Below, in pieces: positions 207 to 54,640 of a stretch of 64,000 bases of DNA; the first letter of the stretch is position 1, and each line of letters opens with the position of its first letter. Source of the DNA: a bacterium. GTDB lineage: Bacteria > Hinthialibacterota > Hinthialibacteria > Hinthialibacterales > Hinthialibacteraceae. Position numbers and translations under genes: made by a program. The notes under the pieces were generated by a model that was given only the letters and a program-made list of their open reading frames with translations, did no database searches and had not been told where the DNA came from. Where the stretch lies: the NCBI GenBank assembly GCA_963662285.2, contig CAXXMV010000001.1, forward strand, positions 896,001 to 960,000. The letters are read 5' to 3'.

Positions 207-319
207 TAGATTAATGCGCCCAAAAACGTTCATATTTACGTTTCGAGAAAGCCATTAAAGATCGGCTTTCCCGAAAACAAAAGCAACAAGAAAAGAACCT
301 CGTTTCAAGAACTGCTCTA
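207..319 (-). repeat. ~114-bp MITE-like repeat, diverged copy
   Basis: Aligns nearly gap-free with 54527-54640; ends TAGA..CTCTA; central hairpin TTTCGAGAAAGCCA-8nt-CGGCTTTCCCGAAA; its terminal CTA is the TAG stop of the SPFH gene. Confidence 0.75.
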
Positions 320-1213
320 ACTATATAAAGTTCCTGCATTCACTATCGGTTGAGCATTTTCTTCACTGCATAGCACGACCAGAAGATTGCTGACCATAGC
401 GGCCTTGCGTTCTTCATCCAGTTCAACCACATTTCTTTCGCTTAATTGGGTCAAGGCCATTTCCACCATAGTCACCGCGCCTTCCACAATCTTCTTACGG
501 GCGGCGATGACTGCCTGCGCCTGCTGCCTTCTAAGCATGGCGCCTGCAATTTCAGGGGCGTAAGCCAGATGGCTGATCCGCGCTTCTTGAATAATTACCC
601 CGGCGCAGCCTAATCTTTCCTGCAATTGTTTGGATAATTCTTCATTTACTTCATCTCTGCTTTGCCGCAAAGATACATCATGCTCGCTTTCGTTGGTGTC
701 ATATGGATAGCAGCCCGCTAAATGGCGAATGGCTGCTTCGCTTTGCGTATCGACGTATTCTTCATAATCATCCACCTCGAATAACGCCTGGGCGGTGTCC
801 TGCACTTTCCAAACCACTACCGCGGCGATCTCTATAGGGTTGCCGCTTTTATCGTTGACCTTTAATTTCTCTCCATTAAGATTCCTGGAGCGCAAAGAGA
901 TTTTTTTGACGGAAATAAACGGATTGCACCAGAAAAAGCCGTTTTCTTTAACCGTGCCTTTGTAATCTCCAAAAAGCAACAACGCCGCCGCCTGATTTGG
1001 TTGAATCACATAAAAACCAACCGTCATCAAAATCGAGCAGATAAGCAACACCGCGCCCGGTATCCAAATTAAGGGCGGTCTATCATTGTTAATGCCGATT
1101 AATCCATTAACAAAACAATAAATTACTATGGCATACATAAGGATATTCATTACAAGAAATATCCACCCACTCTTACCATTGATATGTTTTTCTTGATTCT
1201 TATCCTGATTCAT
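317..1213 (-). CDS. SPFH (band 7/stomatin-like) membrane protein
   Basis: Two N-terminal TM helices; [43 protein letters not shown]-terminal IVNAGTLY. Confidence 0.93.
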
Positions 1214-1233
1214 TTTGATCCTCCAATATTAAT

Positions 1234-1266
1234 ATGATACTACTATGATATCACTTTTATATCATT
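1234..1266. promoter_or_regulatory. Three 11-bp-periodic TGATATCA-like boxes upstream of the SPFH-RHH operon (candidate RHH operator)
   Basis: ATGATACTACT / ATGATATCACT / TTTATATCATT in tandem, 21-53 bp upstream of the SPFH start. Confidence 0.5.
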
Positions 1267-1328
1267 TATTCAATAAAAATTTCACTTTTTTCTCTATTAA
1301 TCTATAAGCCTAATGCTTTCTAATAGTT

Positions 1329-3657
1329 CAGACCTCCTGAGCTCACCCGTGGTTTGCGGTTCTCGCGGGATTTTGTTAGGATACTGGAGGGAAGGCCAAT
1401 CCTGCAGAGTATGAGGGAGTTAAAAAAATGCCGCAGACCTTATTACCTCTATTCGCATCAGGCGAAGGATTCATATCCGAGTTGATTTCCTATCAAAAAA
1501 AAGATGGATCGGTGTACTACTTTCATGCCGGATTACCGGTTTTCAGTCATGGGGAAACCGACCTTAAAAGTTTTCGCATGTTCACCAGCCAGTTGGCGGT
1601 CAGTGGAGTCTGCCGCCAAGTTGACATCGTTAGAGCCTTTGGCATCAGCGCCATCAGTATGAAGCGATGGGTCAAGAAATACCGCGAGGAAGGCCCGGAA
1701 GCATTCTTCAAAACTCCGCGCCGACGCAGCGAACATGTCCTGACGCCGGAGGTGTTGCAAAAAACCCAAGACCTCTTATCGCAGGGCGTGAGCCGTTCCG
1801 AAGCAGCGAAGCAAATGAATCTAAAATCGAATACCTTGTCGAAGGCGATCTGCGCAGGCCGCTTGACCGAACCGGTAAAAAAAAAGACCTGAACGGCAGC
1901 AACAAAAGCCAGCGCAGCGCGGCGGATCATGCCGCTCCCATGGGGATGGGATGTACGCGGGTCGTGGAGCGGGTCTGCGCGGCGACGGGGCAACTCAGCG
2001 AAGCGCCCACCCGTTTCGAGACCTCGCTGGACGTCTGCAATGGCGGCGTGCTTTGGGCGCTGCCGGCGTTATCGGCCAATGGATTGTTGACCAAAACAGA
2101 AGCCTTGTTCTCCCTGCCCAAAGGTTATTATTCCTGCATTCATATTTTCCTGCTGTTAGCTTTCATGGCCTTGATCCGGATCAAGACCAACGAACAGTTG
2201 CGCTATTTTCCGGCGGGAGAAGGGGGCAAATGGCTGGGATTGGATCGAATCCCCGAAGTGCGGACCTTGCGGGAAAAGATCAAAATCCTGGCGGCGCCCG
2301 AATCGGTCGCGCAATGGAGCCGCATCTTGTCACGGCATTGGATGGATAACAATCCAGAGGCGGCGGGAGTTCTGTATATCGATGGACACGTACGCGTCTA
2401 TCACGGCTCGCAAACTCCGCTCCCCAAACGGTACGTGGCGCGCGACCGCTTGTGCATGCGGGGCACGACCGACTATTGGGTAAACGATCAGCAGGGCGAT
2501 CCGTTCTTCGTGGTGAGCACGCCGTTCACCGCGGGATTGCTGGATATGTTGAAACGCGAGATCGCGCCGCAACTGCTGCAGGATGTTCCCAACCAGCCCA
2601 GCCCGCAACAACTCGAAGCGAATCCTTATTGCCATCGGTTTGTCATGATCTTTGACCGTGAGGGATACAGCCCAACCTTCTTCGCGGAGATGCGGACGCT
2701 CCGCATCGCCTGCCAAACCTACAACAAGTATCCCAAAGAAGATTGGCCGGAAGCGGAATTCACCGAGGTCAATGTGGAGATGCCCGGCGGCCATTCATCA
2801 CGCATGAAATTGGCTGAACGAGGGGTGTTCCTGGGCCGGGTTTTGTGGGTGAGGGAAATCCGGAAACTCACAGAAAGCGGTCACCAAACCTCGGTGATCA
2901 GTACGGATTACACCTCTGATTTCACCCGTATTGCGGCGCATATGTTCTCGCGATGGTCACAGGAAAACTTTTTCCGTTATATGATGCAACACTATGGAAT
3001 TGATCGGCTTATCGACTACGATCTCGTCAAGCCGGATGATACCGTGAAAGTGGTCAATCCCGCCTATCGTTCTTTGGAAGGCCGGATAAAAAAACAAGCG
3101 GGACGATTGGGAAGAAAGAAGGCGGAGTTTGGAACTTTGGCGCTGACGGAATCCCAGGTGGAGGAGAAAGATATCTTATCCTTTGAACAAAAAAAGGGGG
3201 AAATCAAAGAAGATATCGAGCAGTTGGAGCATGAACTGGCCGGGATGAAGGAGGAACGTAAAACGGTTGACAAGCACTTGCCGCTTAATCAACTGCCGGA
3301 GCCGGAACGGTTTTTGCAACTCGCTCCGACGCGCAAACAATTTCTCGATGCGATTAAAATGATCGCCTATCGGGCGGAGACGGCCATGGCGATGATTGTG
3401 CGAACAAAATTGGCCCGAAGCGACGATGCCCGCTCATTGATCCGGGAAATATTTGCGACGGAAGCGGATCTCATTCCGGATGAGGAAAACAAAACCTTAA
3501 CGGTGCAGTTGCACCATTTGACCAACCACCTATCGGATCAAGCCGCCCGCAACTTAGCAGCGAATCTCAACGCCACAGAAACCATCTACCCCGGCACGGA
3601 ATTGCGACTAATCTACAAACTGGTATCGGATGAAATTCCACCAGATCAGGAGGTCTG
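1329..3657 (+). mobile_element. Complete insertion sequence (2329 bp), unclassified DDE-type
   Basis: Perfect 12-bp TIRs CAGACCTCCTGA (1329-1340) / TCAGGAGGTCTG (3646-3657); 5-bp target duplication TAGTT (1324-1328, 3658-3662); higher GC than the flanks. Confidence 0.93.
1428..1892 (+). CDS. IS OrfA, helix-turn-helix DNA-binding part of the transposase
   Basis: RQVDIVRAFGISAISMKRWVKKYREEG HTH and a second HTH (SRSEAAKQMNLKSNTLSKAI); GAGGGAG RBS; ends at an A9 run. Confidence 0.85.
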   Translation: MPQTLLPLFASGEGFISELISYQKKDGSVYYFHAGLPVFSHGETDLKSFRMFTSQLAVSGVCRQVDIVRAFGISAISMKRWVKKYREEGPEAFFKTPRRRSEHVLTPEVLQKTQDLLSQGVSRSEAAKQMNLKSNTLSKAICAGRLTEPVKKKT

Positions 3658-3664
3658 TAGTTAG
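1877..3664 (+). CDS. IS OrfB, transposase catalytic region (reached by -1 frameshift from OrfA)
   Basis: YIDGH, FDREGYS and RWSQENFF motifs give a D-D-E arrangement; the -1 frame is open from 1667; A9G slippery run at 1877-1886. Confidence 0.85.
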   Translation, partial: KKKDLNGSNKSQRSAADHAAPMGMGCTRVVERVCAATGQLSEAPTRFETSLDVCNGGVLWALPALSANGLLTKTEALFSLPKGYYSCIHIFLLLAFMALIRIKTNEQLRYFPAGEGGKWLGLDRIPEVRTLREKIKILAAPESVAQWSRILSRHWMDNNPEAAGVLYIDGHVRVYHGSQTPLPKRYVARDRLCMRGTTDYWVNDQQGDPFFVVSTPFTAGLLDMLKREIAPQLLQDVPNQPSPQQLEANPYCHRFVMIFDREGYSPTFFAEMRTLRIACQTYNKYPKEDWPEAEFTEVNVEMPGGHSSRMKLAERGVFLGRVLWVREIRKLTESGHQTSVISTDYTSDFTRIAAHMFSRWSQENFFRYMMQHYGIDRLIDYDLVKPDDTVKVVNPAYRSLEGRIKKQAGRLGRKKAEFGTLALTESQVEEKDILSFEQKKGEIKEDIEQLEHELAGMKEERKTVDKHLPLNQLPEPERFLQLAPTRKQFLDAIKMIAYRAETAMAMIVRTKLARSDDARSLIREIFATEADLIPDEENKTLTVQLHHLTNHLSDQAARNLAANLNATETIYPGTELRLIYKLVSDEIPPDQEVCS

Positions 3665-3817
3665 ATACATAAATATTTTGACTTTCTATAAGTCAAAACT
3701 AATTATTTAATGCAAACCATTCCATCATGTGGGATTTTGACGATTTAATGAGATTATTTATTTGGTAATAGGAGAAGAATAACCTTTTAAGTCTATATGT
3801 TTGATGATTCTTGATGA

Positions 3818-4081
3818 TTATGAATACAGTTGGGTATGGGATCCGACTAGGATAAATATCACTCGTTCATAATTGCCTTCTACCTCAAATACTAAACGCA
3901 AGTCCCCACCTGCGGATATTGACCTAGAACCCTGAAACTTGCCATGAAGCGCATGATTCTCGAGTAGTGGATGATGCTGATTATTCTGGAAATTTTCTAA
4001 GGTCTTTTTGACTTTATCTCGTATCTTTGGGGAAAGTTTGAGAAAAGCCTTATTAAAATCTTTATGATAGCGAATTTTCAT
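3818..4081 (-). CDS. RelE/YafQ-family type II toxin (mRNA interferase)
   Basis: 87 aa basic protein; HALHGKFQGSRSISAGGDLRLVF and VGSHTQLY motifs. Confidence 0.9.
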   Translation of the reverse strand: MKIRYHKDFNKAFLKLSPKIRDKVKKTLENFQNNQHHPLLENHALHGKFQGSRSISAGGDLRLVFEVEGNYERVIFILVGSHTQLYS

Positions 4082-4312
4082 CTAGGCTTGGGTTTCTAAT
4101 TGTGTCAAATAGTCTATGGCTGCTTGGCCTTCGAGGTCTGGGCTCATATTAATACCTAGTTTGATATCTTCTTTCGCTTGAAGGATTTTGGCGGTATCTT
4201 CCTCAGAAAACTCCTCTTGTTCTTGAACAGAAATCACAAAATTAATAACTTCCTCTTGTTGATCCAGCGCAAGTTCCTGGAAATCAGTAATTACGTCTTT
4301 TGCGGTTTTCAT
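4082..4312 (-). CDS. Putative antitoxin
   Basis: 76 aa acidic protein abutting and upstream of the toxin; GGAG RBS. Confidence 0.75.
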   Translation of the reverse strand: MKTAKDVITDFQELALDQQEEVINFVISVQEQEEFSEEDTAKILQAKEDIKLGINMSPDLEGQAAIDYLTQLETQA

Positions 4313-4398
4313 TAGGTTTTCTCCATCTTTGGAAAAAATGATTCTTTCCTCACATTATATATCTAAAAAATCTGATCTTGTCAAAAGAATCCATATAT

Positions 4399-4433
4399 TA
4401 GAGCGATTATTCAAAATTATGATAACCACTCTA
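4399..4433 (+). repeat. 35-bp internally deleted derivative of the MITE-like repeat
   Basis: TAGAGCGATTATTCAAAATTATG..ACCACTCTA keeps both termini of the 114-bp family; terminal CTA is the stop codon of the adenosyltransferase gene. Confidence 0.7.
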
Positions 4434-4976
4434 TCTTTCAGGATTCCACTTAATATCATCGCGGCCTTCCTGTTGATTTTGAAACCGGGCCATAACAAAA
4501 AGCAGATCCGACAAGCGGTTCAGGTATGGCAATACAAAGGAAGGTATAGATTCATCCTCACACAACATAGCGACAGTCCGCTCGGCTCTTCTACAGACCG
4601 TTCGAGCAACATGCATGGTCGAAGCCGCCATAGAGCCGCCCGGTAAAACAAAGGCCTTTAATGGGGGTAGTTGATCAGTAAATTGATCAATCCAATCCTC
4701 AAGTGATTTGATTAATTCCGGCTTGGCTTTGAGATTCTGCGCTTCAACATCTGCCAATACGCTTCCTATAAAAAATAAATCTTCTTGTATGTGCAATAAT
4801 TTTGCAGCAGTATCTTCACTAATGCCTTGGGCTATAGCCTGACCGATAAAGGAGTTCAGCTCATCAACCGTACCATAGGCTTCAACTCTCGCTGAATGCT
4901 TGGACAACCGTTTGCCGCCAAAAAGGCCAGTAGTTCCATCATCACCCGTTTTTGTATAAATTCGAGCCATTTTCAA
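4431..4976 (-). CDS. PduO-type cob(I)alamin adenosyltransferase
   Basis: IYTKTGDDGTT, AYGTVDELNS, ARTVCRRAER and YLNRLSDLLF signature motifs. Confidence 0.95.
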   Translation of the reverse strand: MKMARIYTKTGDDGTTGLFGGKRLSKHSARVEAYGTVDELNSFIGQAIAQGISEDTAAKLLHIQEDLFFIGSVLADVEAQNLKAKPELIKSLEDWIDQFTDQLPPLKAFVLPGGSMAASTMHVARTVCRRAERTVAMLCEDESIPSFVLPYLNRLSDLLFVMARFQNQQEGRDDIKWNPER

Positions 4977-5178
4977 TTTAACTCCTTATATTCAGGCATA
5001 TTACAAACTATTTAGTTTTCCAAAGATCAAAATCTTTAACTATTCCCCCCACCCCTAAATAACTTAATAAATTACATTTAATACAAAAAATGCATTTTAA
5101 GCGCCATTTTTTATAAAAAAAAGACTATTAGTAGAGAGATTTTTATAAACCATCATACGGAAAAGAGAGGAAAAGACA

Positions 5179-5883
5179 ATGAGATTATCAGGAAAACAAC
5201 TTACATCCAAAATGTTGCTGCTAGCTATGCTATGCATCACGCAAAGCCTATTCGCGGAAACATATACCTACCAGTTTGATAAAGATACGTACACTACTTA
5301 TCACGATGTACGTATTCAAGAAAATTATGTGGATTATTCTGGTGGACTCTATTTACGAGTACGAAATCCAACCAATATCTATGGATTATTATTATTCGAC
5401 AATATTGAAGCGCCGGCAGGCCTCTATTCAGTTGAACTACAGATAATCGCCAGCGAAGTTGTCACTGCGGGAACAGTTTGTGTAGAAATATTAAAAAAAC
5501 CCAGCTGGACTGATCCTCACGCTATCTTTAACCCTCCTGCAACCAACAGCACTTATCCAACCTGGAATCATCAAAACTATTCAAGCATTGAATGGGATGC
5601 GCCCGGCGCCAGCGGCGCCGAAGACAGAGGCGCCCTGATCGGAACACAGTATATTGCCAACGCCAGCCAAACATATTCCTTCAATGGAACGTTGACAATC
5701 ACAGAAGGACAAAGCGCAGTAGGATTCATTTTGACCGCTTTGGATGCATATATAAATATATATTGCAGCGATTCATGCGGCGAATCCTACTTCCTTACGC
5801 CAAAATTAATTTTGCGTAACCGTTACCAGAGAGGCGGCCTGGATGTTAATACATTATCTAATCAACGACGGCCTTTGAGATAG
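5179..5883 (+). CDS. Secreted protein with DNRLRE/CBM96-like domain
   Basis: Signal peptide; LLLFD, PTWN..W..PGASG..DRG and PKLIL elements typical of DNRLRE-type domains. Confidence 0.6.
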   Translation: MRLSGKQLTSKMLLLAMLCITQSLFAETYTYQFDKDTYTTYHDVRIQENYVDYSGGLYLRVRNPTNIYGLLLFDNIEAPAGLYSVELQIIASEVVTAGTVCVEILKKPSWTDPHAIFNPPATNSTYPTWNHQNYSSIEWDAPGASGAEDRGALIGTQYIANASQTYSFNGTLTITEGQSAVGFILTALDAYINIYCSDSCGESYFLTPKLILRNRYQRGGLDVNTLSNQRRPLR

Positions 5884-5891
5884 GATTCATC

Positions 5892-6005
5892 CAGAGCGAT
5901 TATCAAAATTATGTTCGTTTATTATCACTTTTGATCTTTGAAAAAGCCAATCTTTTCTGGCTTTTTCGAATCGCCAATCAGAACATTATTATGAAAACTA
6001 CTCCA
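5892..6005 (+). repeat. ~114-bp MITE-like repeat
   Basis: Highly similar to 41196-41309; central hairpin TTTGAAAAAGCCA-ATCTTTTC-TGGCTTTTTCGAA. Confidence 0.9.
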
Positions 6006-6119
6006 ATTAATGATTGATATATTGCTGTATGCATTGCTTTTAGAACTAGTTGATTTAGTATTCTGCTGAGGGTGGAATAATCTATTCCACCCTCCAAATT
6101 TGTCGAAGGGGTCATTTTG

Positions 6120-7061: not shown

Positions 7062-7190
7062 TCAATATTCTCTGGATTGCAACCAGATGTCTCAATAACG
7101 AATCAATTGCAAGCCACAATGGCATTCAACAAAAGTCCAACTTTGCGCGTAAATTATTGATCGATTGAGAACATCACGGGAGTTTGTTAC

Positions 7191-11031: not shown

Positions 11032-11075
11032 ATTTCTCATTATACTTTTTCGCAAAACAAGGAGCTGTTTAATTT

Positions 11076-12497: not shown

Positions 12498-12533
12498 ATT
12501 AATTCTGAGAATCGCTACTAAGAAAGAAAATCC

Positions 12534-13114: not shown

Positions 13115-13154
13115 TAAATCATGAAGCATTCATAACACATCTCAGGAGGACAGC

Positions 13155-33238: not shown

Positions 33239-34357
33239 TTAATTATTCTCGTTATTGATATTAAAAATTATGGAATTATCCATCACCTGGACTTGTTGAT
33301 CATCCACCAGGTCTTGCTGTCCAACAACCACAACATGTTCGTAGGGTTCGAGTCCATCAGTAATTTCAATCCGATCCTTCTTGAATACGCCAAGATTGAC
33401 TGGCCGACTATGCACGATTCCTTCTTTCTCAACAAAAACCATCATGCCGGATGCGCGTTTGATCAAAGCAATCAGGGGAACAATCAGGGCTTTATCGACG
33501 CGTTTAGTGGTTATTTCCGCCCGGACAATCATCCCTGGGCGAATGCGGTAATCAGGATTATCCATTACCAAGGTAGCCTCAAAAGTGTTAGTTTGAGCAT
33601 CGGCTTCAAAAGCCAGACGTTCAATCCTGGCTGGAAGAATTTCACCCAAAGACTCAAGATGAACCATAGATTCTTTTTCATGAGAGACTGCATCAGCATA
33701 AAGTTCCGGGACTCCAACCACAACCTTGACTTTATCCATTGAAAGCAGACGGGCTAATTGCGATCCTTCAGGAGCGAATTCGCCTTTTTCAACTTCTATA
33801 CGATCAATGATTCCATCCATGGGAGCAACGATATGACCAAGCGAAACATCTACTTGCAATGTACGCATTATTGCGCTGGCCCGGCGTTCCTGAGAAACAG
33901 CTTCGTCATACTCCTGCACCGTGACATCTCCGCGCTTGTTGAGGATTTTTTTACGTTCCAGGCTTTTTTGGGCCAAGTCGTGGGCCGCCTTGGCATCTTC
34001 GACGCGCGCAGTACGCGAGCGGAGATCGATTTGAAAGAGTTCCATTCCTTTCTTAACCCGGTCTCCTTCTCTGACGTATACCTCTTCAACGATTCCCGGA
34101 ATTCCCGCGCTGACATTGACGTCTTCATAGGCTTCAACCGTACCAGGCAGAAGAACTGTTTCCTGAAGCGGTTGAGGAATAATTTCTATTGACTGAACGC
34201 GCTTAAGCGGCGCTTTTTCCTGCATTGCCTCAATTGAGGCAGATTTCTGCGCCGAACTGGATGGAATCAGCGACATCACGTATAAAGCTCCTACAAAAAA
34301 AACGGGCAGCGCCAAATACATAATCGAGCGCAATAAATATTTCATAACAAATTTCAT
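33239..34357 (-). CDS. RND periplasmic adaptor (membrane fusion protein)
   Basis: N-terminal anchor; GIVEEVYVREGDRVKKG, IVAPMDG, IRPGMIV. Confidence 0.93.
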   Translation of the reverse strand: MKFVMKYLLRSIMYLALPVFFVGALYVMSLIPSSSAQKSASIEAMQEKAPLKRVQSIEIIPQPLQETVLLPGTVEAYEDVNVSAGIPGIVEEVYVREGDRVKKGMELFQIDLRSRTARVEDAKAAHDLAQKSLERKKILNKRGDVTVQEYDEAVSQERRASAIMRTLQVDVSLGHIVAPMDGIIDRIEVEKGEFAPEGSQLARLLSMDKVKVVVGVPELYADAVSHEKESMVHLESLGEILPARIERLAFEADAQTNTFEATLVMDNPDYRIRPGMIVRAEITTKRVDKALIVPLIALIKRASGMMVFVEKEGIVHSRPVNLGVFKKDRIEITDGLEPYEHVVVVGQQDLVDDQQVQVMDNSIIFNINNENN

Positions 34358-34962
34358 TATTTCTTTCCTCCAATACCATGCAATACAAAGTCAAGCAATA
34401 TTTCAACAAAGTTATCAGGAACAGATGTGGGATCAAGCATTAAAGTTTGCATATATACGCTGATTGAGCCTAAATAATGCATGATTAATTGTTCGATATT
34501 GCCTTCTCTTATGAATCCCTGATTAATTCCTTCTGTGAATAGCACCGCTAATAATTCAAAATGTTCTTTTTCAAATGCCATAATATCAACGTGCGGAATC
34601 GTGTTTCGCGGCGAAAACGCAGCATGATATATTAAACGAACCGTATCTTCATAATCTTTGAATAATAGAAAATATAAATTTGTTGTTTCCCGCAACCGCT
34701 CCATAAAGTCACCGGGATTACTCGTTATTTCGCTTAATCTATTAAAGAAAAAAGCGTAGGCCTCACGAATCAGAGTAACAAACATATCCTCTTTATTCTC
34801 AAAATAATAATATAGAACTGGTTTAGTGACTCCTGCTGCTTTTGCAATATCACGGATGCTGGTTCCATCAAAACCTTGTTTCGAGAAGAGGCGTGTGGCT
34901 GCATGCGCGATGTGTTCCCGTGTATCTTCTGATTTATGAGATATTTGCGTATTAATCGCCAT
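34357..34962 (-). CDS. TetR/AcrR-family regulator
   Basis: LFSKQGFDGTSIRDIAKAAGVTKPVLYYYFENKE. Confidence 0.95.
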   Translation of the reverse strand: MAINTQISHKSEDTREHIAHAATRLFSKQGFDGTSIRDIAKAAGVTKPVLYYYFENKEDMFVTLIREAYAFFFNRLSEITSNPGDFMERLRETTNLYFLLFKDYEDTVRLIYHAAFSPRNTIPHVDIMAFEKEHFELLAVLFTEGINQGFIREGNIEQLIMHYLGSISVYMQTLMLDPTSVPDNFVEILLDFVLHGIGGKK

Positions 34963-40959: not shown

Positions 40960-40989
40960 ATTATATCATCATTATAGCCGGTTTGTCAA
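40960..40989 (-). promoter_or_regulatory. Consensus sigma70 promoter with extended -10
   Basis: Minus strand TTGACA-18 bp-TATAAT, with TG preceding the -10 (TGaTATAAT). Confidence 0.75.
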
Positions 40990-41122: not shown

Positions 41123-41165
41123 AAAAAAAATCCCTCGTTTTTATTCTAAACGAGGGATTTTTTTT
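41123..41165. terminator. Intrinsic terminator downstream of the FG-GAP gene
   Basis: A8-TCCCTCGTTT-loop-AAACGAGGGA-T8. Confidence 0.88.
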
Positions 41166-41195: not shown

Positions 41196-41309
41196 TAGAG
41201 CGATTATCAAAATTATGTTCGTTTATTATCACCTTTGGTCTTCATAGAAGCCAATCTTTTCTGGCTTCTATGAATCGCCAATCAGAATATTATTATGAAA
41301 ACTACTCTA
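41196..41309 (+). repeat. ~114-bp MITE-like repeat
   Basis: TAGAGCGATTATCAAAA..TATGAAAACTACTCTA with CTAG at both ends; perfect 13-bp hairpin TTCATAGAAGCCA/TGGCTTCTATGAA; terminal CTA is the stop of the FG-GAP gene. Confidence 0.9.
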
Positions 41310-42647
41310 GAACATTTCCCAATGCAAAACGTCTGTTCCCGCATTATTAAAGAAAACGTATACCCGCCCGTTTAGAGCATTGGAAGCGTCTCCAGAATCA
41401 ATAATTGAGCAGAGGACGGCAACATCGGTATCGCCATCACCATCAAAATCATCCTTCACGGCATAGCGCGGCTCCTCTTCCAGCATAAAAGAGGCTGTTT
41501 CAGTGAATTCAGCATTGCCATTATTCTCGAATATCTTCAAACTTGCTTCGAGTCTGTTAGCGCCACCGACATTAACGATTTCCTGGACAGTTGTGATGTA
41601 ATCAACATCGCCGTCCATATCATAATCATCCACCAATACGCTGAAGGCCATACCGGGCGCTGGAATCGAAACTAAAGGACTAAATCGGTCGCCTTTGTTT
41701 TCAAAGATATTTATTGATGCATTGGTTCCTAAAAAGGAGGCCAGGCCATCCATGTCGCCAACATTGGATACGGCTATATCTTCCAAGCCATCGCTGTTGA
41801 AATCTCCCTTATCCAGGCTCCAAGGGAAGAAATTGATATCCAGGGGCATGTATTCTGCAAGTTTGTCACCTGTTCCATTAAAGATGGAGATATTCATATA
41901 GGTGTATATCAAATTGAAACTGGAATCCAAATCAGTTGCTCCCTGGTTAACGCCGACGATATCTTTATTGCCATCCTGATTATAATCGAACGCCAAAAAA
42001 TCGACTAAACTTCCATCCGTATATTTAGGTAAATTAGAAGAGAACAATCCATGCCCCCGGTTATCGAATGAGTATATGCCAGCTTCATAGACATTTAAGG
42101 TTAATTTGACTTCGTCTAATTTAAGCTCACCGTTATTACTCACAATAACTTCATTATCACCATCTCCGTCTAAATCACTTATTTTCAATGCCGATGGAAT
42201 GCCTGATATGGGCTGGAATATCTGTATATAGCTGCCATCCTCTTCTGAATAGAGAAAAGCAATACCAGATTCAGCAGGGGTGCCCAATTGCGCACGGGTC
42301 AGATTTTGCACAAAAGCAACGGCCAGATCGAGGTTCCCCGAGCCATCCAGGTCGCCAATGGTTAGCGCTACGGGATGTTTTCTATCTGATTCCAGAGGCA
42401 AATTAACAATATTGTTAAAATTACCGTTTCCATCGTTAAAAGCCAATGTAATTGAATGGCTGAAAATGTTTGATACAGCTATATCAACATCGCCATCGCC
42501 GTCCAGGTCACCTGAATCGATAGTGCTGGAACGTAAACCTGTCCCGAAAATTGCTCCTTGTTCAAAAGAAATATCGGCGTAAAGATTCGCCGGAACGCAA
42601 AGAACCAAACCTAACACCATGATATAACATACTCTTTTCAATAACAT
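41307..42647 (-). CDS. Secreted FG-GAP/VCBS-repeat protein
   Basis: Signal peptide; about seven DxDGDGxxD Ca-binding blades. Confidence 0.9.
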   Translation of the reverse strand: MLLKRVCYIMVLGLVLCVPANLYADISFEQGAIFGTGLRSSTIDSGDLDGDGDVDIAVSNIFSHSITLAFNDGNGNFNNIVNLPLESDRKHPVALTIGDLDGSGNLDLAVAFVQNLTRAQLGTPAESGIAFLYSEEDGSYIQIFQPISGIPSALKISDLDGDGDNEVIVSNNGELKLDEVKLTLNVYEAGIYSFDNRGHGLFSSNLPKYTDGSLVDFLAFDYNQDGNKDIVGVNQGATDLDSSFNLIYTYMNISIFNGTGDKLAEYMPLDINFFPWSLDKGDFNSDGLEDIAVSNVGDMDGLASFLGTNASINIFENKGDRFSPLVSIPAPGMAFSVLVDDYDMDGDVDYITTVQEIVNVGGANRLEASLKIFENNGNAEFTETASFMLEEEPRYAVKDDFDGDGDTDVAVLCSIIDSGDASNALNGRVYVFFNNAGTDVLHWEMF

Positions 42648-43471: not shown

Positions 43472-43497
43472 TCCCTATTGTTGTTGAGATTGATTAC

Positions 43498-43785: not shown

Positions 43786-43796
43786 TGAGATTTTAA

Positions 43797-44948: not shown

Positions 44949-45006
44949 TAAAGCGCTCCTTGGGGATATTGTTTCTTGAGAGATTTATAAAAAAACGTGG
45001 ATAAAA

Positions 45007-45050
45007 GCGGTAGTCCAAAGTTTTCATAAGACCGGACTTTGAACTACCGC
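45007..45050. terminator. Hairpin downstream of the xylose isomerase gene
   Basis: GCGGTAGTCCAAAGT / ACTTTGAACTACCGC inverted repeat, followed by a T run on the minus strand. Confidence 0.5.
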
Positions 45051-45078
45051 GTATTCAGTAAATAGAGAAAGCAAAAGC

Positions 45079-46116: not shown

Positions 46117-46178
46117 AATAAATCCTTTCCATTTCAGAATACTATATTAAAAGAAGTTAAAAAATATTCTCAATCCAA

Positions 46179-47129: not shown

Positions 47130-47347
47130 AATAACGCCTCTCCAGTAAATTGTTTATTAAATATACCACGCATCTGAATTTCTATTTAATAAGCATGATG
47201 ATATATACTAGCATTATTTTTATTTAAAGAGTATTTTCACAGAACAAATTAATACTCATTAATCGACTGTCCATAGAAATGCTTGGCGCTCTTTTCATGT
47301 TTGAGTTATAATCACTCTATAAAAACACAACGGTATAAGGAAACATT

Positions 47348-47926
47348 ATGTCGCGCATATCTTCGAAACCAGACAAAGAATATCCGTGGTGGATTCGGCT
47401 GTTTTTTCGTTCTCAATACAAAAAGTATGGACAGGTTTTAGAACCAGCCAAAATCTGGGCGCGCATTCCACGGGTTTTTCTGGGCGTTGCTGCATTATAC
47501 GGAGGGCTGGACCGTAAATCATCGAATATTGAACCTGTGCTGCGGGCCTTAATCACCGTGCGCATTTCTCAAATAAACTGGTGCACCTTTTGCGTCGATA
47601 TCAATTCAGCCACCGTCTTGAAACGAGGCGGGACGGATAAGAAACTGGAAGATTTGGATAGTTTTCTGGATAGCCCGCACTTCTCAGATAAAGAAAAAGC
47701 CGCATTAGAATATGCCGAAGCAGTTACCTACACTGATCGTCAGGTAACGGATGAATTGTTCGCCAAAGTCAAACAGCATTTTGACGATGATGGAATAGTT
47801 GATTTAACCGGGCTTATCGCCTTCCAAAATCTATCGAGTAAGTTCAACGCATCCCTGGACGTAATGCCGCAGGGATTCTGTAAAATCGCTCCTCAGCCCA
47901 CCGGCGCTAATACAGAAAAAGAGTGA
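47348..47926 (+). CDS. AhpD/carboxymuconolactone decarboxylase-family protein
   Basis: RISQINWCTFCVD (CxxC), FSDKEKAALEYAEAVT. Confidence 0.88.
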   Translation: MSRISSKPDKEYPWWIRLFFRSQYKKYGQVLEPAKIWARIPRVFLGVAALYGGLDRKSSNIEPVLRALITVRISQINWCTFCVDINSATVLKRGGTDKKLEDLDSFLDSPHFSDKEKAALEYAEAVTYTDRQVTDELFAKVKQHFDDDGIVDLTGLIAFQNLSSKFNASLDVMPQGFCKIAPQPTGANTEKE

Positions 47927-47941
47927 TATTCAAGCAGCGCT

Positions 47942-49123
47942 CTAATTAACTTTCAATTCATAAAAGGCATCGGCCAGCCGTTTGATCCCGGTATCTATGG
48001 CAGACTCATCAGCGTTGGAGAAATTCAAGCGCATTGTAGAGTCGCCGCCATCTTCACAATAGAATGGAAAACCGGGAACAAAAGCGACATTATTTTTTAC
48101 AGCAGCATCGAATAATTTCATCGACGACATCCCATCCGGTAAATCAGCCCAAAGAAACATCCCGCCTTCCGGCTCGGTGCATTTAATATCACCGTCGAAT
48201 CGCGCTTTGATGGCATGAACCATGGCGTCACGTTGTTTTTTATAGACTTCGCGAATTTTGTTGATATGTTCATCCATATCATAATCTACCAGCAATTGGT
48301 GAATCACGCGCTGCACGAAAGAACTGGAATGAAGATCAGAGGCTTGCTTGGCGACGATCAATTTCTCGATAAATTCCTTACGGGCGCAAATCCAACCCAG
48401 GCGGAAAGATGGAACAACAACTTTGGAAAACGAACCCAGTAAAAGAACGTTATCCATACAGAAAGATTTGACCGGAGCGATGTCAGAACCCATAAAGCGC
48501 AATTCTCCATAGGGATTATCTTCTACAAACAATAGATTATTATCATGCAGAAGTTGGGCTGTTTCCCGCCGGACTTCCTCAGAATAAGTGATGCCTGTCG
48601 GATTCTGGAAACTGGTTACAGAATAAATCAGTTTGATGGAGAATTGCCTTATAGTCCTTTTCAATTCATCTAAATCAATGCCCTCTTCAGTCAAGGCAAC
48701 CGGGTGAAACTCAGGTTGATACATGGAAAGAGCCTGCAAGGCGCCCAAGTAACCGGGCTTCTCAACTACAACCGGGTCGCCTTTATTGAGGAAGACCTTG
48801 CCGATCAGGTCGATGCCCTGCTGAGAACCATTGGTGATCAATATTTCATCGGCATCAACATCCATTCCGTATTGTTGGTTGTAACGTCCGGCTACCCATG
48901 AGCGCAAAGGGTGATAACCCTGGGTTTTGGCATATTGAAGGGCGCCCTTACTATCCGTCGCCAAAACTTTCTGACAGGCCTCGGCAATTTCCGCAGCAGG
49001 GAACAAATCGGGATTGGGCAATCCTCCAGCAAAGGATATCACTTCCGGTTTTCCTGCGACTTCCAGGATATCGCGGATAAAAGAACGGCGTGTATTAAGA
49101 ATTCTATCTGAGAAATAGTTCAT
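47942..49123 (-). CDS. PLP-dependent aminotransferase (LysN/aromatic class I type)
   Basis: ISFAGGLP, NGSQQGID, FQNPTG, EDNPYGEL, GSFSK..PSFRLGW, PEGGMFLW. Confidence 0.93.
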   Translation of the reverse strand: MNYFSDRILNTRRSFIRDILEVAGKPEVISFAGGLPNPDLFPAAEIAEACQKVLATDSKGALQYAKTQGYHPLRSWVAGRYNQQYGMDVDADEILITNGSQQGIDLIGKVFLNKGDPVVVEKPGYLGALQALSMYQPEFHPVALTEEGIDLDELKRTIRQFSIKLIYSVTSFQNPTGITYSEEVRRETAQLLHDNNLLFVEDNPYGELRFMGSDIAPVKSFCMDNVLLLGSFSKVVVPSFRLGWICARKEFIEKLIVAKQASDLHSSSFVQRVIHQLLVDYDMDEHINKIREVYKKQRDAMVHAIKARFDGDIKCTEPEGGMFLWADLPDGMSSMKLFDAAVKNNVAFVPGFPFYCEDGGDSTMRLNFSNADESAIDTGIKRLADAFYELKVN

Positions 49124-49186
49124 AGAAGGTTGTCCAATTTAAGTAAATATTACGAATATAGTATGTTCAGATAATCTAAAGATAGA

Positions 49187-49729
49187 TTATTTAAGATCAA
49201 GGTCAAGCAGATAAAAAGCATTCAATACAAGAGCATGACGGATAGTTCCATTTTGAATCATGGAGGGGATTTTATCTCCAGGAATCAATACTACTTGAAT
49301 GTCTTCGCCCGCATCCAGGTTCTGCGGATATTTTAACTCAACATTTTCAGCGCAAAAGATATGGCAGGTATTATTCAAAATCGCCGGATTGGGATGACAC
49401 GATCCGATGCATCTAACCTTATCAGAATGATATCCTGTCTCTTCCTTCAATTCACGTCGCGCCGCATCAATCGGGGATAGGTCGGCGCGATCAATCAGGC
49501 CGCCGGGAATCTCCAAGGTAACCTCTTCCATTCCAAAACGATACTGACGCACCATCACAATTTCGCCTTGGGGTGTAATGGGAATGACAATCACCCAATC
49601 TCTGGTTTCCAAGACAAAGACCTGTAGGTCATCGCCTGTACGAGGCGATTCCATCAGGTCGCTTCGAAGATCAAAGACCGGATAACGACAAACATACTCG
49701 CTGGATTTCTTCTTCCATGGACGAACCAT
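49187..49729 (-). CDS. NUDIX hydrolase (ADP-ribose pyrophosphatase-like)
   Basis: VRQYR, EIPGGLID..AARRELKEETG Nudix box. Confidence 0.93.
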   Translation of the reverse strand: MVRPWKKKSSEYVCRYPVFDLRSDLMESPRTGDDLQVFVLETRDWVIVIPITPQGEIVMVRQYRFGMEEVTLEIPGGLIDRADLSPIDAARRELKEETGYHSDKVRCIGSCHPNPAILNNTCHIFCAENVELKYPQNLDAGEDIQVVLIPGDKIPSMIQNGTIRHALVLNAFYLLDLDLK

Positions 49730-49755
49730 GTAATTATATACTCCTTTGGCAGGAT

Positions 49756-51339
49756 TTATTTCGCCATACCAGGATCGTTTATACTTAAAAGCGGCCCAAT
49801 ACGATGTCCATTATGAGGGATGCTATAAGTCCGGGAACCATTCGATGTTACAAAAGAATGCGATGCAACCGCTTCGGTCGACATAATATAACCAGAGTAT
49901 AACACGCCAATACGATAATCATATTCTGCATTCCCCGATGCAACAGGTTTTAAATCATAAGGCTTGTCACCGAGCATGACGCGAACATATTCTGGAGGCC
50001 TATTCATCATATCACGATAGACGCACCGCACATGATATTTTTTCCGGGAGTTTCCCACCAGTTCATAAATCTCAGCAGCATGCAGGAAAGGAGGAGGGTC
50101 GCCAGAAGGCACGCCTAGGGTTTCTGCAAATGCATAGACAATCAGTTCGCCCTCGGTCATAAGATCATCCTGCGACTTATACAGCGTATACGGCAATCCA
50201 AAGCTCTGATTATAACGATGCTCGCATTGGCATAATCCCGTCAAGACATCAGGAAACAGATCCGCAACATACTTGGAAAACCGGGTATCCTGCAAAACCC
50301 GCTCGGAATTGTAAAACCAGGGTAAATATTTCTGGCAAAGCAATTGACTAAAAAAAGCATCCTGAGCAGCGTAATTCGATTCAGCGCAATGTTCTCTTCT
50401 GAAGTGATCGTCGCTCCAGGCGCTTGAATGGATCCGGATAGCATAGTTGATGGAATTGCCGGAATCTTTCCACTGTTGCAGGAAAAGTTTTAATTGACGT
50501 TGTTCATAAAACGAATAACTGGTTTCCGGCCATGTCTCAGTCCAATATACGTTCTTCCCTTGGGCGGAACCTTCTAATGAGATGGGATGAACTGCGCTGC
50601 CCAACGCAACGCCATCTCTATCAAATAGCGGAATAAACATAAAGCGGCAGCGCCGTTTTACTGCGGCGGCGACAGGATCATCCGAAAGTAAAAAGCGAAT
50701 TATCCCTTCACAGAGCCATGAAGCGGCGCCCTCCAGGGCTTCTTCCCGCGCCAGGATAAAAATGGCTAATTTATCTTTGTCAACTATTTCCGGATCAGTA
50801 ACTGTTATCAAGGGAATAGAGAGCTGCTTGATCGGCGTTTGACATATAGATTGAAAATTGACATGGGGATTGGCGCCAATCTCCTTGATAAAATCATCTA
50901 ACCGGTTGTTGGGATAAGGTGGAGTAAAAGCCAGCCAGGCTCGATTTGATGCAAAAGTATGAGTGAAAGAATATTTAACTATATTCTGTTCACCGGGATA
51001 TGAGGTTGTGGTGCGCGTCTTGAGAAAAGACCAGTTTTTCTGATCATAACTGATCGCAGGAAGCGCGTCGCAGCTATAATAATCCTTACGGGCATGCTCA
51101 AATACAAAGGTTCTGGTTTTACCGCCAAGCCCATCAACTCTGAAAAAATACCATATCCCGCCAGAAGATGGAGCATGTTGCAGAACAATCTCACCACTGG
51201 CATTCTGCGTCCACCCGCCTAAACTGCCATTATCAAAATTCCAGGCGATCTGGAAATCGTTATCCGATGCAGATTGGGCGTATAGCGCAGGAAAGACAGA
51301 TAAATATAAAAGAACGATTACAGATGCACGTTTCATCAT
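49756..51339 (-). CDS. Secreted M14 cytosolic-carboxypeptidase-like protein with altered metal site
   Basis: Signal peptide; NFDNGSL, WYFFRV, AFTPPYP N-domain motifs; AREEALE replaces the usual HxxE. Confidence 0.72.
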   Translation of the reverse strand: MMKRASVIVLLYLSVFPALYAQSASDNDFQIAWNFDNGSLGGWTQNASGEIVLQHAPSSGGIWYFFRVDGLGGKTRTFVFEHARKDYYSCDALPAISYDQKNWSFLKTRTTTSYPGEQNIVKYSFTHTFASNRAWLAFTPPYPNNRLDDFIKEIGANPHVNFQSICQTPIKQLSIPLITVTDPEIVDKDKLAIFILAREEALEGAASWLCEGIIRFLLSDDPVAAAVKRRCRFMFIPLFDRDGVALGSAVHPISLEGSAQGKNVYWTETWPETSYSFYEQRQLKLFLQQWKDSGNSINYAIRIHSSAWSDDHFRREHCAESNYAAQDAFFSQLLCQKYLPWFYNSERVLQDTRFSKYVADLFPDVLTGLCQCEHRYNQSFGLPYTLYKSQDDLMTEGELIVYAFAETLGVPSGDPPPFLHAAEIYELVGNSRKKYHVRCVYRDMMNRPPEYVRVMLGDKPYDLKPVASGNAEYDYRIGVLYSGYIMSTEAVASHSFVTSNGSRTYSIPHNGHRIGPLLSINDPGMAK

Positions 51340-51421
51340 TAAACATCACCCACATCACCAGGATTCGTTCTTTAATCTCAGCGCTACGCTCTAGGCAGCG
51401 CATCTATCCAATACTCCAAGA

Positions 51422-52378
51422 TTATGATTTATCACCAATCTCCATACCAAGCAAGACGCCGCCTACAACCACTACATCTTCGCCAAGAGCGGCTGGAACT
51501 ATTGAGAATGATCCATCAAAAGGGCTAAAAGAATTTTGCATGACTCTCTTTAGCAGCGCATCCCAAAACAAAGATCCCATCAAAGAAACGCCGCCTCCGA
51601 TAATAAAACGTTCTGGATTCAACAAGGCGATAGTATTACAGATGCTCACAGCCAGGGCGTTACAAGTATCATCTAGTATAGCACAGGCAAGAAGGTCATC
51701 CTGTTCAGCTGCGGCGTAAACCATTTTGGCGTCGATTGATGAAAGGTCGCCTTTCGACAGGTTCTTAATAAGCGTGGATTCGCCTTCTTCAACAGCATGG
51801 CGGGCGCGTTCACCGATAGCCCAACCCGAACAAATATTCTCTAATTTCTCGGGATCGCCATCGTCAGGATCAGGCACCCAGGTATGGCCGATTTCCGCGG
51901 CGCCAAATCCCTGCCCTTCGTCAATTACGCCATCAACGATCCAGCCGCCGCCGATGCCGCTGCCAATCGTCATATAGAAAACGCGGCTGAATCCTTTACC
52001 AGCGCCCATCCGGGCTTCGGCATAGCCTGCCAGACTGGCGTCGTTTTGAATAGCCACAGGCGCCTGACATTGTTGGCTCAGCCAATCTCTCAAGGGAAAG
52101 CCATCCCATCCATCAATTTGGTGAGATATAAGGGTAATCCCTTTTTTGGAATCAATCGGTCCGCCAAAACCTACGCCGACGCCGCAGATATCATTGCGCG
52201 AGATTTGCGCCTTTTCAATTACATCATCAATCAGAGCGGGAATGGCTTCACGGATGCCTTCTGCGCCGCGTTCCACATCAACTTGCGTACGCGAAATAGC
52301 AATCAACCGATCATTTTTGAAACCGATTCCCGCTTGTAATTTAGTTCCGCCAATCTCAATTCCGATTGCGATGCTCAT
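51422..52378 (-). CDS. ROK-family sugar kinase
   Basis: GIEIGGTK, GVGFGGP, QNDA, GSGIGGG, EIGH. Confidence 0.93.
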   Translation of the reverse strand: MSIAIGIEIGGTKLQAGIGFKNDRLIAISRTQVDVERGAEGIREAIPALIDDVIEKAQISRNDICGVGVGFGGPIDSKKGITLISHQIDGWDGFPLRDWLSQQCQAPVAIQNDASLAGYAEARMGAGKGFSRVFYMTIGSGIGGGWIVDGVIDEGQGFGAAEIGHTWVPDPDDGDPEKLENICSGWAIGERARHAVEEGESTLIKNLSKGDLSSIDAKMVYAAAEQDDLLACAILDDTCNALAVSICNTIALLNPERFIIGGGVSLMGSLFWDALLKRVMQNSFSPFDGSFSIVPAALGEDVVVVGGVLLGMEIGDKS

Positions 52379-52950
52379 GATGTGTGCATAGCCTTGAATT
52401 TCTCTGTCAACGCATCCAAAGCGTAATGCATAACAACGCCATGCACCGCCTCGACGACGCCCATGTTAAAAGAATCAACATGTACTGATTGATGAGCCAT
52501 TTTACGTAATTTCCCGCCATCATATCCAGTGAAACCAAACGTTTTCATGCCGTTTTCATTGGCGTACTCAATGGCTTTGATAATATTAGGGCTATTGCCG
52601 GAACCGCTGATAGCGATCAGCAAAGCGCCAGGTTCGGCGAAGTTCTTCAATTGCTCGACGAAGATGCGGTCATACGACGTATCATTTCCCCAGGCGAGAA
52701 TATAAGGCGTATTATCGGTTAAGCTCATAACTTTGAGCCGTTTCTGCGTATCGAAATCGGTCAGAGTACCCTTACCCAAATCTTCACAGAGATGAGAAGC
52801 GTTAGCGCCGCTGCCGCCGTTGCCAATCAAGAATACAAAACGGTTATTAACATAGGCTTCAGTGATAGCGTCGATTAAACCATCGACCTCTTTTTGATCA
52901 ACTTTGCTCAGCAAATCCGTAAAATCTTTTAAGTATTGTGCAATAGACAT
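52375..52950 (-). CDS. gmhA: SIS-domain phosphoheptose isomerase-like protein
   Basis: GNGGSGANASH, AWGND..Y..IFVEQL, ISGSGNSPN; ATGA overlap with the ROK gene. Confidence 0.75.
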   Translation of the reverse strand: MSIAQYLKDFTDLLSKVDQKEVDGLIDAITEAYVNNRFVFLIGNGGSGANASHLCEDLGKGTLTDFDTQKRLKVMSLTDNTPYILAWGNDTSYDRIFVEQLKNFAEPGALLIAISGSGNSPNIIKAIEYANENGMKTFGFTGYDGGKLRKMAHQSVHVDSFNMGVVEAVHGVVMHYALDALTEKFKAMHTS

Positions 52951-53174
52951 TAAAAAAAACCTCCTAGTAGACATTAACTACGAATCATACATTCTGATGT
53001 TATTTATGAAAAGCGAGATGAAGTTAAAAAAAATAATTTCAGCATTTACATGAAAGAATATGCAACCAATATTATTCTACATGCTGCAAGGATAATCCTT
53101 GTGGTTACCCGATTACGAAATCCCCTTTGGTTTTTCAAATTTCCAAGCCGCCTGAAATATTCTTAGGAAAAGTA

Positions 53175-54254
53175 TTAGAGAATAATGAGTTCTTTAGTTG
53201 AGTTATTCATTATTTCACATGCGCCGTCTCTAATAACTACCATATCCTCTATGCGAATCCCGCCTACTCCTGCAACATACACGCCCGGTTCAATAGTTAC
53301 TACATGGCCGCTCTCCAGTTGGTGGTCGGCCAGAGGGGATAGCCGGGGTGATTCGTGAATTTCAAGGCCTACGCCATGCCCCAGGCCATGCATAAATTGA
53401 TCGATCCGCCCCGCTTTTCTGATAACATCTCGCGCATATTTATCGGCCTGCACGCCGCTGATGCCCGCGCAAATACTATCTTCAGCTGCGCGATTAGCGT
53501 CAAATACGCACTGATACATGCTTTTCAGTTCCTCAGACGGTTGGCCGAAGAAGATAGTGCGCGTTATATCTGAATTATACCCGTCCGGCATCAAACAGCC
53601 AAAATCCATCAGAATAACATCGCCTGTTTTCAGCGTATGATTAGAAGCCTTGCCGTGGCACATCGAAGAACGGGGGCCAAATAAGACCAGTGGGTCAAAG
53701 GACTCTTTCACCGCCCCGGCGCGCCACATCTCATCAAGCAGAAAACGGGCCAGTTCACGCTCGCTCATACCCTCATGGATTTCATCCAAAGCCTTTTGGA
53801 AAGCATCTTCGGCCAGTTTGAGAGCCTGCTTCAGTGCAAGAATCTCCGGCTCTTCTTTTACTACGCGCAAGAGTTCGACAACGCTGCGCTTAGGAATGAA
53901 CGATTTGGCAGGTATAGCATCCTGCAAGGCGGAAAACCTCGCTACCGTGTAGTTATCAGCTTCAAACCAGATAATCTTATCAGACGCATCGCCAATTATA
54001 TCAGATATAGCCTGCATCTCCTTACGGTTACCCTGTATAACTGCTTGATATTCTGATACTTCGCGCGAAACCTGTTCGGTATATCTTCCATCCGTCAGAA
54101 TATACTGCCGGTCAGGGCTAATTAACAAAGAAGCAGAACTTCCAGTAAAACCGGATAGATAACGTACGTTAGACAGGTCGGTTACAAAAAACCAATCCGC
54201 GTCGCCCTGATCAATTGTTTTTAAGACTGAAGCGGTTCTAGATTTATAGTCCAT
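53175..54254 (-). CDS. Xaa-Pro aminopeptidase (M24B)
   Basis: RYLSGFTGS, TDGRY, DFG..YNSDITRT, HGLGHGVGLEIHE, TIEPG, GGIRIED. Confidence 0.95.
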   Translation of the reverse strand: MDYKSRTASVLKTIDQGDADWFFVTDLSNVRYLSGFTGSSASLLISPDRQYILTDGRYTEQVSREVSEYQAVIQGNRKEMQAISDIIGDASDKIIWFEADNYTVARFSALQDAIPAKSFIPKRSVVELLRVVKEEPEILALKQALKLAEDAFQKALDEIHEGMSERELARFLLDEMWRAGAVKESFDPLVLFGPRSSMCHGKASNHTLKTGDVILMDFGCLMPDGYNSDITRTIFFGQPSEELKSMYQCVFDANRAAEDSICAGISGVQADKYARDVIRKAGRIDQFMHGLGHGVGLEIHESPRLSPLADHQLESGHVVTIEPGVYVAGVGGIRIEDMVVIRDGACEIMNNSTKELIIL

Positions 54255-54526
54255 ATATTTTCACCCTTAGAGCGATTCTCAAAACAACATGCGTCTATGC
54301 GGTTGTTAACTGCTATAACCCATTTTCACTCATTATGGATGCATATCTTTGAAGGGCAAGAGTTAAATTAAATGCTTTTGTTTTTAATAATATAAAAAAA
54401 GTCATAATTATTTCACTCGCCTTGACCAGAACCAAGCTACAGAGAAAATACTTATAATCTCTTCACCTCATAAAATCATAGGTATATAGATTGAATTTTT
54501 GATTTTTTACGCCGGATGCAGAGATG

Positions 54527-54640
54527 TAGAGTGCTTGACATAATAACATTCATTTTCGCGTTTTGAAAAAGCCAGTAAAGATTGGCTTTTTCAAAGACTA
54601 AAGGCAATAATAAACGAATATGGTTTTGGCAACCGCTCTA
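54527..54640 (-). repeat. ~114-bp MITE-like repeat, inverted copy
   Basis: Reverse complement aligns to 41196-41309; TAGAG..CTCTA ends; hairpin TTTGAAAAAGCCA/TGGCTTTTTCAAA. Confidence 0.88.

Follow-up and report, generated by a model that had tools for sequence, protein, structure and literature searches.

Nezha-type MITEs (miniature transposable elements with inverted repeats) of cyanobacteria, which derive from IS630-family insertion sequences (ISs), are small, palindromic and TA-duplicating, reach high copy numbers and have a known partner IS. Bacterial MITEs of 100–200 bp with terminal inverted repeats (TIRs), TA duplication and long stem-loops are described in PMC2229807, where RUP, the repeat unit of pneumococcus, is thought to be mobilised by IS630-Spn1 (Delihas 2008, PMC2229807), and compensatory changes are reported to keep the hairpins of REPINs (PMC3116915) and of bcr1 (PMC3184786). 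Here we describe a family of ~114-bp repeats in a genome of the Hinthialibacteraceae, starting from a stretch of 64,000 nucleotides referred to as the window (positions 896,001–960,000 of the forward strand of contig CAXXMV010000001.1, assembly GCA_963662285.2). The family is a MITE: its members are small and non-coding, with TIRs, and occur as many dispersed copies between unrelated flanks. It is probably a non-autonomous, cut-and-paste, TA-duplicating MITE of the IS630/Tc1-mariner type whose central hairpin is kept by selection acting on the element.

The window contains four full copies (207–319, 5892–6005, 41196–41309 and 54527–54640) that align end to end, have unrelated flanks, and are recovered both by nhmmer and by a covariance model (E 1e-12 to 4e-29). 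The copy at 207–319 (minus strand) is 113 nt long and of a divergent subfamily-1 type; the others are 114 nt long and belong to subfamily 1A (5892–6005, plus strand, with degenerate CA..CA ends; 54527–54640, minus strand) or subfamily 1B (41196–41309, plus strand, with TA..TA bounds). The central stem-loop of the 41196 copy (41241–41274, plus strand) is formed by the arms TTCATAGAAGCCA (41241–41253) and TGGCTTCTATGAA (41262–41274) and the loop ATCTTTTC (41254–41261). A 35-bp derivative (4399–4433, plus strand) retains both ends around an internal deletion and matches covariance-model positions 1–114 (E 0.004). A preliminary description of the window had listed the full copies and the 35-bp form, all of which are borne out, and had missed a 50-bp both-ended derivative of subfamily 2 (54268–54317, minus strand) in a divergent promoter region. 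The terminal CTA of the 207 copy (317–319) is the TAG stop of a 298-aa SPFH-like open reading frame (ORF; 317–1213, minus strand), that of the 35-bp form (4431–4433) is the TAG stop of ORF 4431–4976 (minus strand), and that of the 41196 copy (41307–41309) is the TAG stop of a 446-aa FG-GAP ORF (41307–42647, minus strand). The 5892 copy begins 9 nt past the stop of ORF 5179–5883 (plus strand), and the 54527 copy occupies the divergent intergenic region between ORFs 53175–54254 (minus strand) and 54687–56042 (plus strand).

A hidden Markov model (HMM) built from the four window copies was iterated with nhmmer against the 7.29-Mb genome of the same organism (G000) and converged at 292 matches, far beyond chance, corresponding to 183 loci, 109 of which are matched on both strands because of the palindromy. 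Both ends of the 114-position model are reached by 126 of the 183 loci (65 plus strand, 61 minus strand); 70 of these two-ended copies are 113–114 nt long and 17 are internally shortened to 68–92 nt. Among them three subfamilies can be told apart (76, 20 and 30 members), and the 114-nt consensus of each is one long imperfect palindrome with a folding energy of −34 to −38 kcal/mol. The outer ~25 nt on each side are imperfect inverted repeats (TAGAGCGRTTNTCAAAA...), which pair as a TIR helix (columns 1–25 with 90–114; 87.6% of cells paired), and between them lies a central stem of 13–14 bp that closes an 8-nt loop. Each of the 126 copies differs from all others: identity to the nearest neighbour has a median of 82.5% and a maximum of 98.2%, and a neighbour at ≥95% identity exists for just eight. 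The family is old and mostly decaying, which fits the lack of a transposase match (see below). The flanks of several copies match 13–94 other places in the genome (e.g. G000:C4:51659–51718, G000:C8:1624125–1624184 and G000:C2:34400–34459), so that the genome must hold other abundant repeats, from one or two families at the least.

Shortened forms recur throughout the genome. Inverted pairs of the 14-nt end core number 12 at spacings of 0–49 bp, 20 at 50–99 bp and 28 at 100–149 bp, and past 200 bp there are 1–6 per 50-bp bin; short forms are therefore common and there is no peak of IS size. A deletion between two TTAAC repeats of subfamily 2 accounts for the 50-bp form, and ~9 copies of near-identical 50-bp architecture are present among the 13 termini listed of 42 extra terminus matches, so this form has spread after the deletion. 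A 26-bp both-ended mini form (G000:C1:613236–613261; TAGAGTGGTTATAA + TAAACCGCTCTA) shows that members can be reduced almost to the termini alone. A regular-expression census of short both-ended forms was uninformative, its reversed-sequence control giving 155 hits against 76 in the genome. The possible 25-bp remnant at 47920–47944 proposed in the preliminary description is unconfirmed: it resembles the element ends by eye only and has no covariance-model match at E≤1. It is flanked by convergent stops (TGA, 47924–47926, of a plus-strand ORF and CTA, 47942–47944, of a minus-strand ORF), and the aminotransferase ending at 47942 has two close orthologues only, with alignments that end 4–6 residues short. 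A further weak covariance-model match (34570–34662, minus strand; E 0.6) within ORF 34357–34962 is probably due to chance.

One terminus of the two-ended copies reads TAGAG (66), TATAG (21) or TAAAG (7) and the opposite one CTCTA (75); 78 of 126 have TA at both ends. In these 78 copies the base at −1 is a pyrimidine (Y; T or C) in 67 and that at +1 a purine (R) in 70, with both in 60. A four-base duplication can be discarded, as the left and right four-base junctions differ (e.g. TTAG vs CTAA); a two-base TA duplication within a YTAR site fits the junctions. TA duplication at a YTAR- or CTAG-like site is a hallmark of IS630/Tc1-mariner transposases. A single empty site, diverged and paralogous, gives direct evidence of this duplication: the gene end that holds the copy at C3:130251–130364 is locally duplicated, and in the paralogue a lone TA separates the same flanks. 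In the contig runs of one study, the only runs with the locus, contigs stop at the repeat and none joins its two sides in the manner of an empty allele.

Gene contexts were assigned with a crude codon-usage ORF caller (5,159 genes, 86% of the genome), so the location classes and null expectations are approximate. Minus-strand ORFs of the window end at 317, 4431, 41307 and 47942 as previously claimed. Genome-wide, the terminal TAG or TAA coincides with a predicted gene stop in only 18 of the 126 copies, and a nineteenth coincides with a TGA at offset −1. Stop codons make up 4.1% of TA and 7.8% of YTAR sites when non-coding and stop-codon sites are considered, and the excess at element ends is 2–3.5-fold (binomial on k=19: p=1e-6 for the TA null, p=0.004 for the YTAR null). 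The proposed association of element ends with stop codons holds as an enrichment over the null, applies to a minority of copies and leaves the protein end unchanged in the genes compared with orthologues. Of the 67 copies in tandem gene contexts, 14 coincide with the upstream stop and 22 are no more than 10 nt away from it. Stop-codon cases are overrepresented in the window relative to the genome: two of its four full copies and the 35-bp form lie on stops. Of 12 intact ends at stop-codon copies, 10 have A or G following the distal TA, which is non-discriminating against a baseline of ~90% R.

Orthologues of two window genes show what the insertions have done to the proteins. Eight of nine family genomes have an SPFH protein that stops at the same residue, the ninth being one residue longer, and all nine FG-GAP orthologues likewise stop where the window protein does, so in both genes the element occupies the ancestral stop codon exactly, the G after its TA rebuilds TAG, and neither protein has been shortened or lengthened. 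The last residues of the FG-GAP protein are ..HWEMF (41310–41324, minus strand), and those of its nine orthologues are W-[EQL]-[LIM]-[YF]. A small conserved ORF (MAKRKSFLLRLN...; ~150–206, minus strand) follows the SPFH gene and begins ~10 nt past the distal end of the 207–319 copy. In orthologues it starts 4–11 nt after the SPFH stop and here the 113-bp element intervenes, which places this copy inside an operon. Just downstream of the 41196 copy and outside the element is a native, strong and canonical bidirectional terminator-like hairpin with 18 pairs between A- and T-runs (41123–41165), so this copy has been inserted between the FG-GAP stop codon and the gene's own terminator.

The central stem changes in a compensated manner. 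The compensatory pairs that distinguish the 5892 and 41196 copies are present as first described, and in a gap-free alignment of 29 subfamily-1 copies 26 cells are changed on both sides, against 8.3±2.5 in shuffled alignments (0 of 500 reached it) and 9–17 with slid partners. RNAalifold returned an empty structure for the 126-sequence HMM alignment, in which indels misalign the centre, and the structure was taken instead from the subfamily consensus folds and a covariance-model alignment. In 92 model-aligned copies, including those of other genera, 229 cells are changed on both sides (74±7 shuffled), the covariation score is 0.242 (0.121 shuffled, 0.057–0.077 slid), and two-sided change affects 11 of the 13 central pairs, a pair taking up to four Watson-Crick states; the structure-fitted alignment and the relatedness of the sequences make these figures lean high. 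Comparisons within subfamilies give 47 central-stem cells with changes in both partners (19–26 with slid partners), and a Watson-Crick pair is restored in 29 of the 47, compared with 40 of 124 slid controls (p=0.0008). The TIR region has no excess of restored doubles (20/53 vs 69/251, p=0.14). The loop is nearly identical across subfamilies whose stems differ at ≥5 pairs, and the stem has a constant plan of A-run, short GC clamp, 8-nt loop, complementary clamp and T-run, with different clamp sequences in three other genera. Compensatory change in the central stem is thus real and well supported. Divergence from the subfamily consensus is 8–12% in the stem, 8–12% in the loop and 11–18% at other unpaired positions, and these near-equal values indicate that resident copies decay almost uniformly. 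Pairing appears to be kept mainly along multiplying lineages, which points to a role in the propagation of the element itself.

The family of repeats extends beyond this genus, with related copies in three or more further genera of the Hinthialibacteraceae. With the covariance model at E≤1e-3, full-length copies are found in five of the 19 other family genomes, with 97 (G017), 49 (G010), 2 (G016), 1 and 1 matches among 150 scored candidates per genome. At E≤1e-5 copies are found in four of 35 genomes of the phylum, G000 included, and none of the 15 phylum genomes outside the family has a covariance-model match. A 748-bp contig labelled Candidatus Zixiibacteriota (L167) carries a contig-edge fragment of an element end beside an oxidoreductase-like gene, and could reflect either a binning error or a transfer.

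These observations are probably best accounted for by a short cut-and-paste element mobilised in trans. A DDE transposase of the IS630/Tc1-mariner type, encoded outside the present assembly, would have inserted the element at the TA of Y-TA-R sites with duplication of the TA, as seen at the paralogous site and presumed at the others. The first base inside the duplicated TA is G, so that insertion into a TAA or TAG stop rebuilds TAG on the side of the gene and leaves the protein unchanged. Stop codons would then be a harmless landing site, and because the rebuilt codon spares the gene, copies would survive there ~2–3.5 times more often than TA or YTAR frequencies alone predict. The central hairpin is kept by compensatory change along multiplying lineages across at least four genera, and as a DNA or single-stranded DNA (ssDNA) hairpin may help so short an element to bring its ends together or to be mobilised. 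Compensation at the level of lineages, together with the uniform decay of resident copies, favours selection on the element over a host function of its transcript.

Several points weigh against this explanation. TA is missing from one or both ends in 48 of the 126 copies, and the TA duplication is seen directly at a single diverged paralogous site whose filled copy reads TA..TT. Subgroups of the IS5 family have 2–4-bp YTAR-like targets according to ISfinder descriptions, and one of them is a conceivable source. The stop-codon and location statistics depend on the approximate gene map. About ten compensatory events occur in one copy only, in divergent copies, and could mean compensation after insertion, that is, host-level or structural selection at individual loci. 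A further objection concerns the enzyme: the search for a transposase sharing the termini, proposed in the preliminary description, gave no transposase gene bounded by element ends in the organism's own genome, in the family genomes or in a species-wide scan for the end pattern. Around the genome's one intact IS630-like gene (DDE_3 and HTH domains, 341 aa) no inverted repeats matching the element could be detected, and none of the 17 DDE_3 loci from 20 family genomes (G000 included) carries element ends. The end-pattern scan, with one genome per species and 185,579 species, returned 21 stretches in four assemblies, of which 18 are MITE-sized model matches and the rest a contig-edge fragment, a divergent ~109-nt form and a 59-nt mini form, that is, only MITE-sized, shortened or contig-truncated copies. 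Candidates in the genome also failed: the IS-sized end pair C1:75904–76889 encloses an ABC-transporter ATPase and no transposase, other IS-sized pairs enclose ordinary genes, and a DUF1670 element has neither MITE ends nor copies within ~10 kb. DNA similar to the element was not found in a plasmid collection.

Three other explanations of the paired structure were weighed. The preliminary description had proposed RNA-level selection and domestication of the element as a 3′-untranslated-region (3′-UTR) signal, in which the transcribed hairpin would stabilise the 3′-UTR, be processed by an RNase or weakly terminate transcription in both directions. Compensatory change specific to the central stem speaks for this, as do the A-run/clamp/loop/clamp/T-run plan, common to subfamilies and genera and similar to a bidirectional terminator, the 22 tandem-context copies close behind an upstream stop, and the Correia/NEMIS MITEs, whose transcripts are described as affecting mRNA processing (PMC2229807). 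The tests made on orientation, mismatches and location are nonetheless negative. Orientation relative to transcription is unbiased (28 same and 39 opposite in tandem contexts, p=0.22; 10 vs 9 at stop codons). One-sided central-stem changes on the element strand give 46 G-T, 40 A-C and 76 other mismatches, G-T and A-C being equally frequent, and on the inferred sense strand G-U does not exceed A-C (26 vs 20, p=0.46). The 119 intergenic copies are distributed as 67 tandem, 44 divergent and 8 convergent, compared with 67.7, 33.5 and 17.8 expected from YTAR sites (p=0.013); convergent regions are depleted, divergent regions are somewhat enriched and there is no enrichment at 3′ ends. A terminator scan flagged none of the four window copies while flagging the native hairpin at 41123–41165 directly behind the 41196 copy, the T-run of subfamily 1B is interrupted, one copy lies inside the SPFH operon junction, and stem and loop decay nearly as fast as unpaired positions. 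What stands of the earlier proposal is thus an unnamed non-autonomous MITE-like element with TAG-supplying termini and a covarying stem; an RNA-level, host-serving role is unlikely, with a transcript-level role a residual candidate.

The pairing might also have arisen as a by-product of origin or repair, either because the element is a deletion derivative with long inverted ends or through arm-to-arm conversion, with the structure itself unselected. The entire element is indeed palindromic, and most compensated states are common to subfamily members and possibly inherited from founders. Against this, asymmetries between the TIR arms are conserved and persist, compensated doubles are in excess in the central stem and not in the TIR region, the loop is near constant while the stems of subfamilies differ, and several pairs have three or four Watson-Crick states; we consider such an origin quite improbable. 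Least probable of all is a REPIN-like element, in which the palindrome would be an ssDNA hairpin substrate of a REP-associated tyrosine (Y1/HUH) transposase (RAYT) acting without target duplication. Whole-element hairpins with compensatory changes are described for REPINs (PMC3116915), REP termini are known to supply TAG stops (PMC3733652), and the genome has six Y1_Tnp matches: four ORFs of ~170–196 aa (G000:C8:1524265–1524834, C8:130150–130446, C8:829561–829869 and C1:404847–405356), one strong match of 146 aa and one broken copy. None of the six loci is flanked by element copies, however, and one half-copy lies ~380 nt from one of them, with an expectation of 0.16 loci per 6.3 kb. In 67 of 78 copies the terminal TAG is preceded by Y rather than by the G of a GTAG tag, the TIRs are ~25 nt long with TA on both sides, and the lone empty site has a single TA.

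Under the preferred explanation, an IS630/Tc1-mariner-type MITE with a hairpin kept by the element, the function of the central module can be taken one step further. Rather than a passive relic, the module, which is kept whatever its orientation, may be a structure that the mobilising enzyme requires in its transposition substrate, or else an orientation-independent insulator or attenuator tolerated or used by the host within operons and promoter regions, a suggestion that we regard as speculative and on balance rather doubtful. If the hairpin does belong to the substrate, this would be a TA-duplicating element with mobility dependent on a DNA hairpin, a combination that to our knowledge has not been described for IS630/Tc1-type elements.

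Other features of the window concern transcription signals near the copies. Weak sigma-70-like promoter matches (9–10/12) occur at the same place within copies (41203–41254, 5899–5950 and 54582–54655), and one of them spans the element end facing the gene at 54687, which is of possible interest given the excess of copies in divergent promoter regions. A perfect 12/12 sigma-70-type match with a TG extension (40960–40989, minus strand) follows the terminator at 41123–41165, and from these two signals the organism appears to use classical terminators and promoters. Rfam models have no match at gathering score in the window, and the sub-threshold ones fall on the terminator adjacent to the 41196 copy.

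The family is a clean, quantified example of small TA-targeting transposons piling up on stop codons with the protein unchanged, and it comes from a phylum without cultured members or described mobile elements. For annotation, there are ~180 loci to mask as repeats, short-read contigs that cover the window break at the element, and TAG stops supplied by the element should not be taken for gene truncations. The covarying stem also poses a testable question, namely whether the hairpin serves the mobility of the element or the host.

Among known systems, the Nezha-type MITEs differ in having a known partner IS, and no partner was found here in the searches described above. Full-text literature searches, evaluated at the level of titles (MITEs with IS630 and stop codons; the phylum name), gave nothing on this family or on repeats of the phylum. 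The claim of novelty made in the preliminary description is nevertheless weakened, as TAG-supplying repeat termini (PMC3733652) and compensatory hairpins in mobile repeats (PMC3116915, PMC3184786) are in print. GTAG-tagged REPs and REPINs, as portrayed in these sources, are alike in providing TAG stops to flanking ORFs (Di Nocera 2013, PMC3733652) and in frequent hairpin compensation (Bertels and Rainey 2011, PMC3116915), and differ in being 20–40 bp long or doublets, in carrying the GTAG tag, and in being RAYT-linked without TA duplication; the family described here has ~25-nt TIRs with TA at either border and Y before the TAG, and is not associated with a RAYT. Correia/NEMIS elements of Neisseria and ERIC elements of enterobacteria share TIRs, a terminal TA with TA duplication, transcripts with long stem-loops, and short as well as long forms, according to PMC2229807. 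The same source gives Correia elements an IHF site, outward promoters and a proposed processing of transcripts by RNase III, whereas the distribution and orientation of the present family speak against a role at the transcript level. RUP, as presented in PMC2229807, is similar in size (~107 vs 114 bp) and abundance (~108 copies vs 183 loci) and is likewise intergenic and non-coding, with TIRs, TA insertion and a predicted long stem-loop, a likeness in described features. The ends of RUP match a resident IS630-family element, whereas no matching transposase was found for the present family in the searches made, which also differs from the published account of RUP in its host, from an uncultured phylum, and in the compensatory change of the central stem documented across genera. 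The element is of an ordinary kind that is already known, and what is new is this family.

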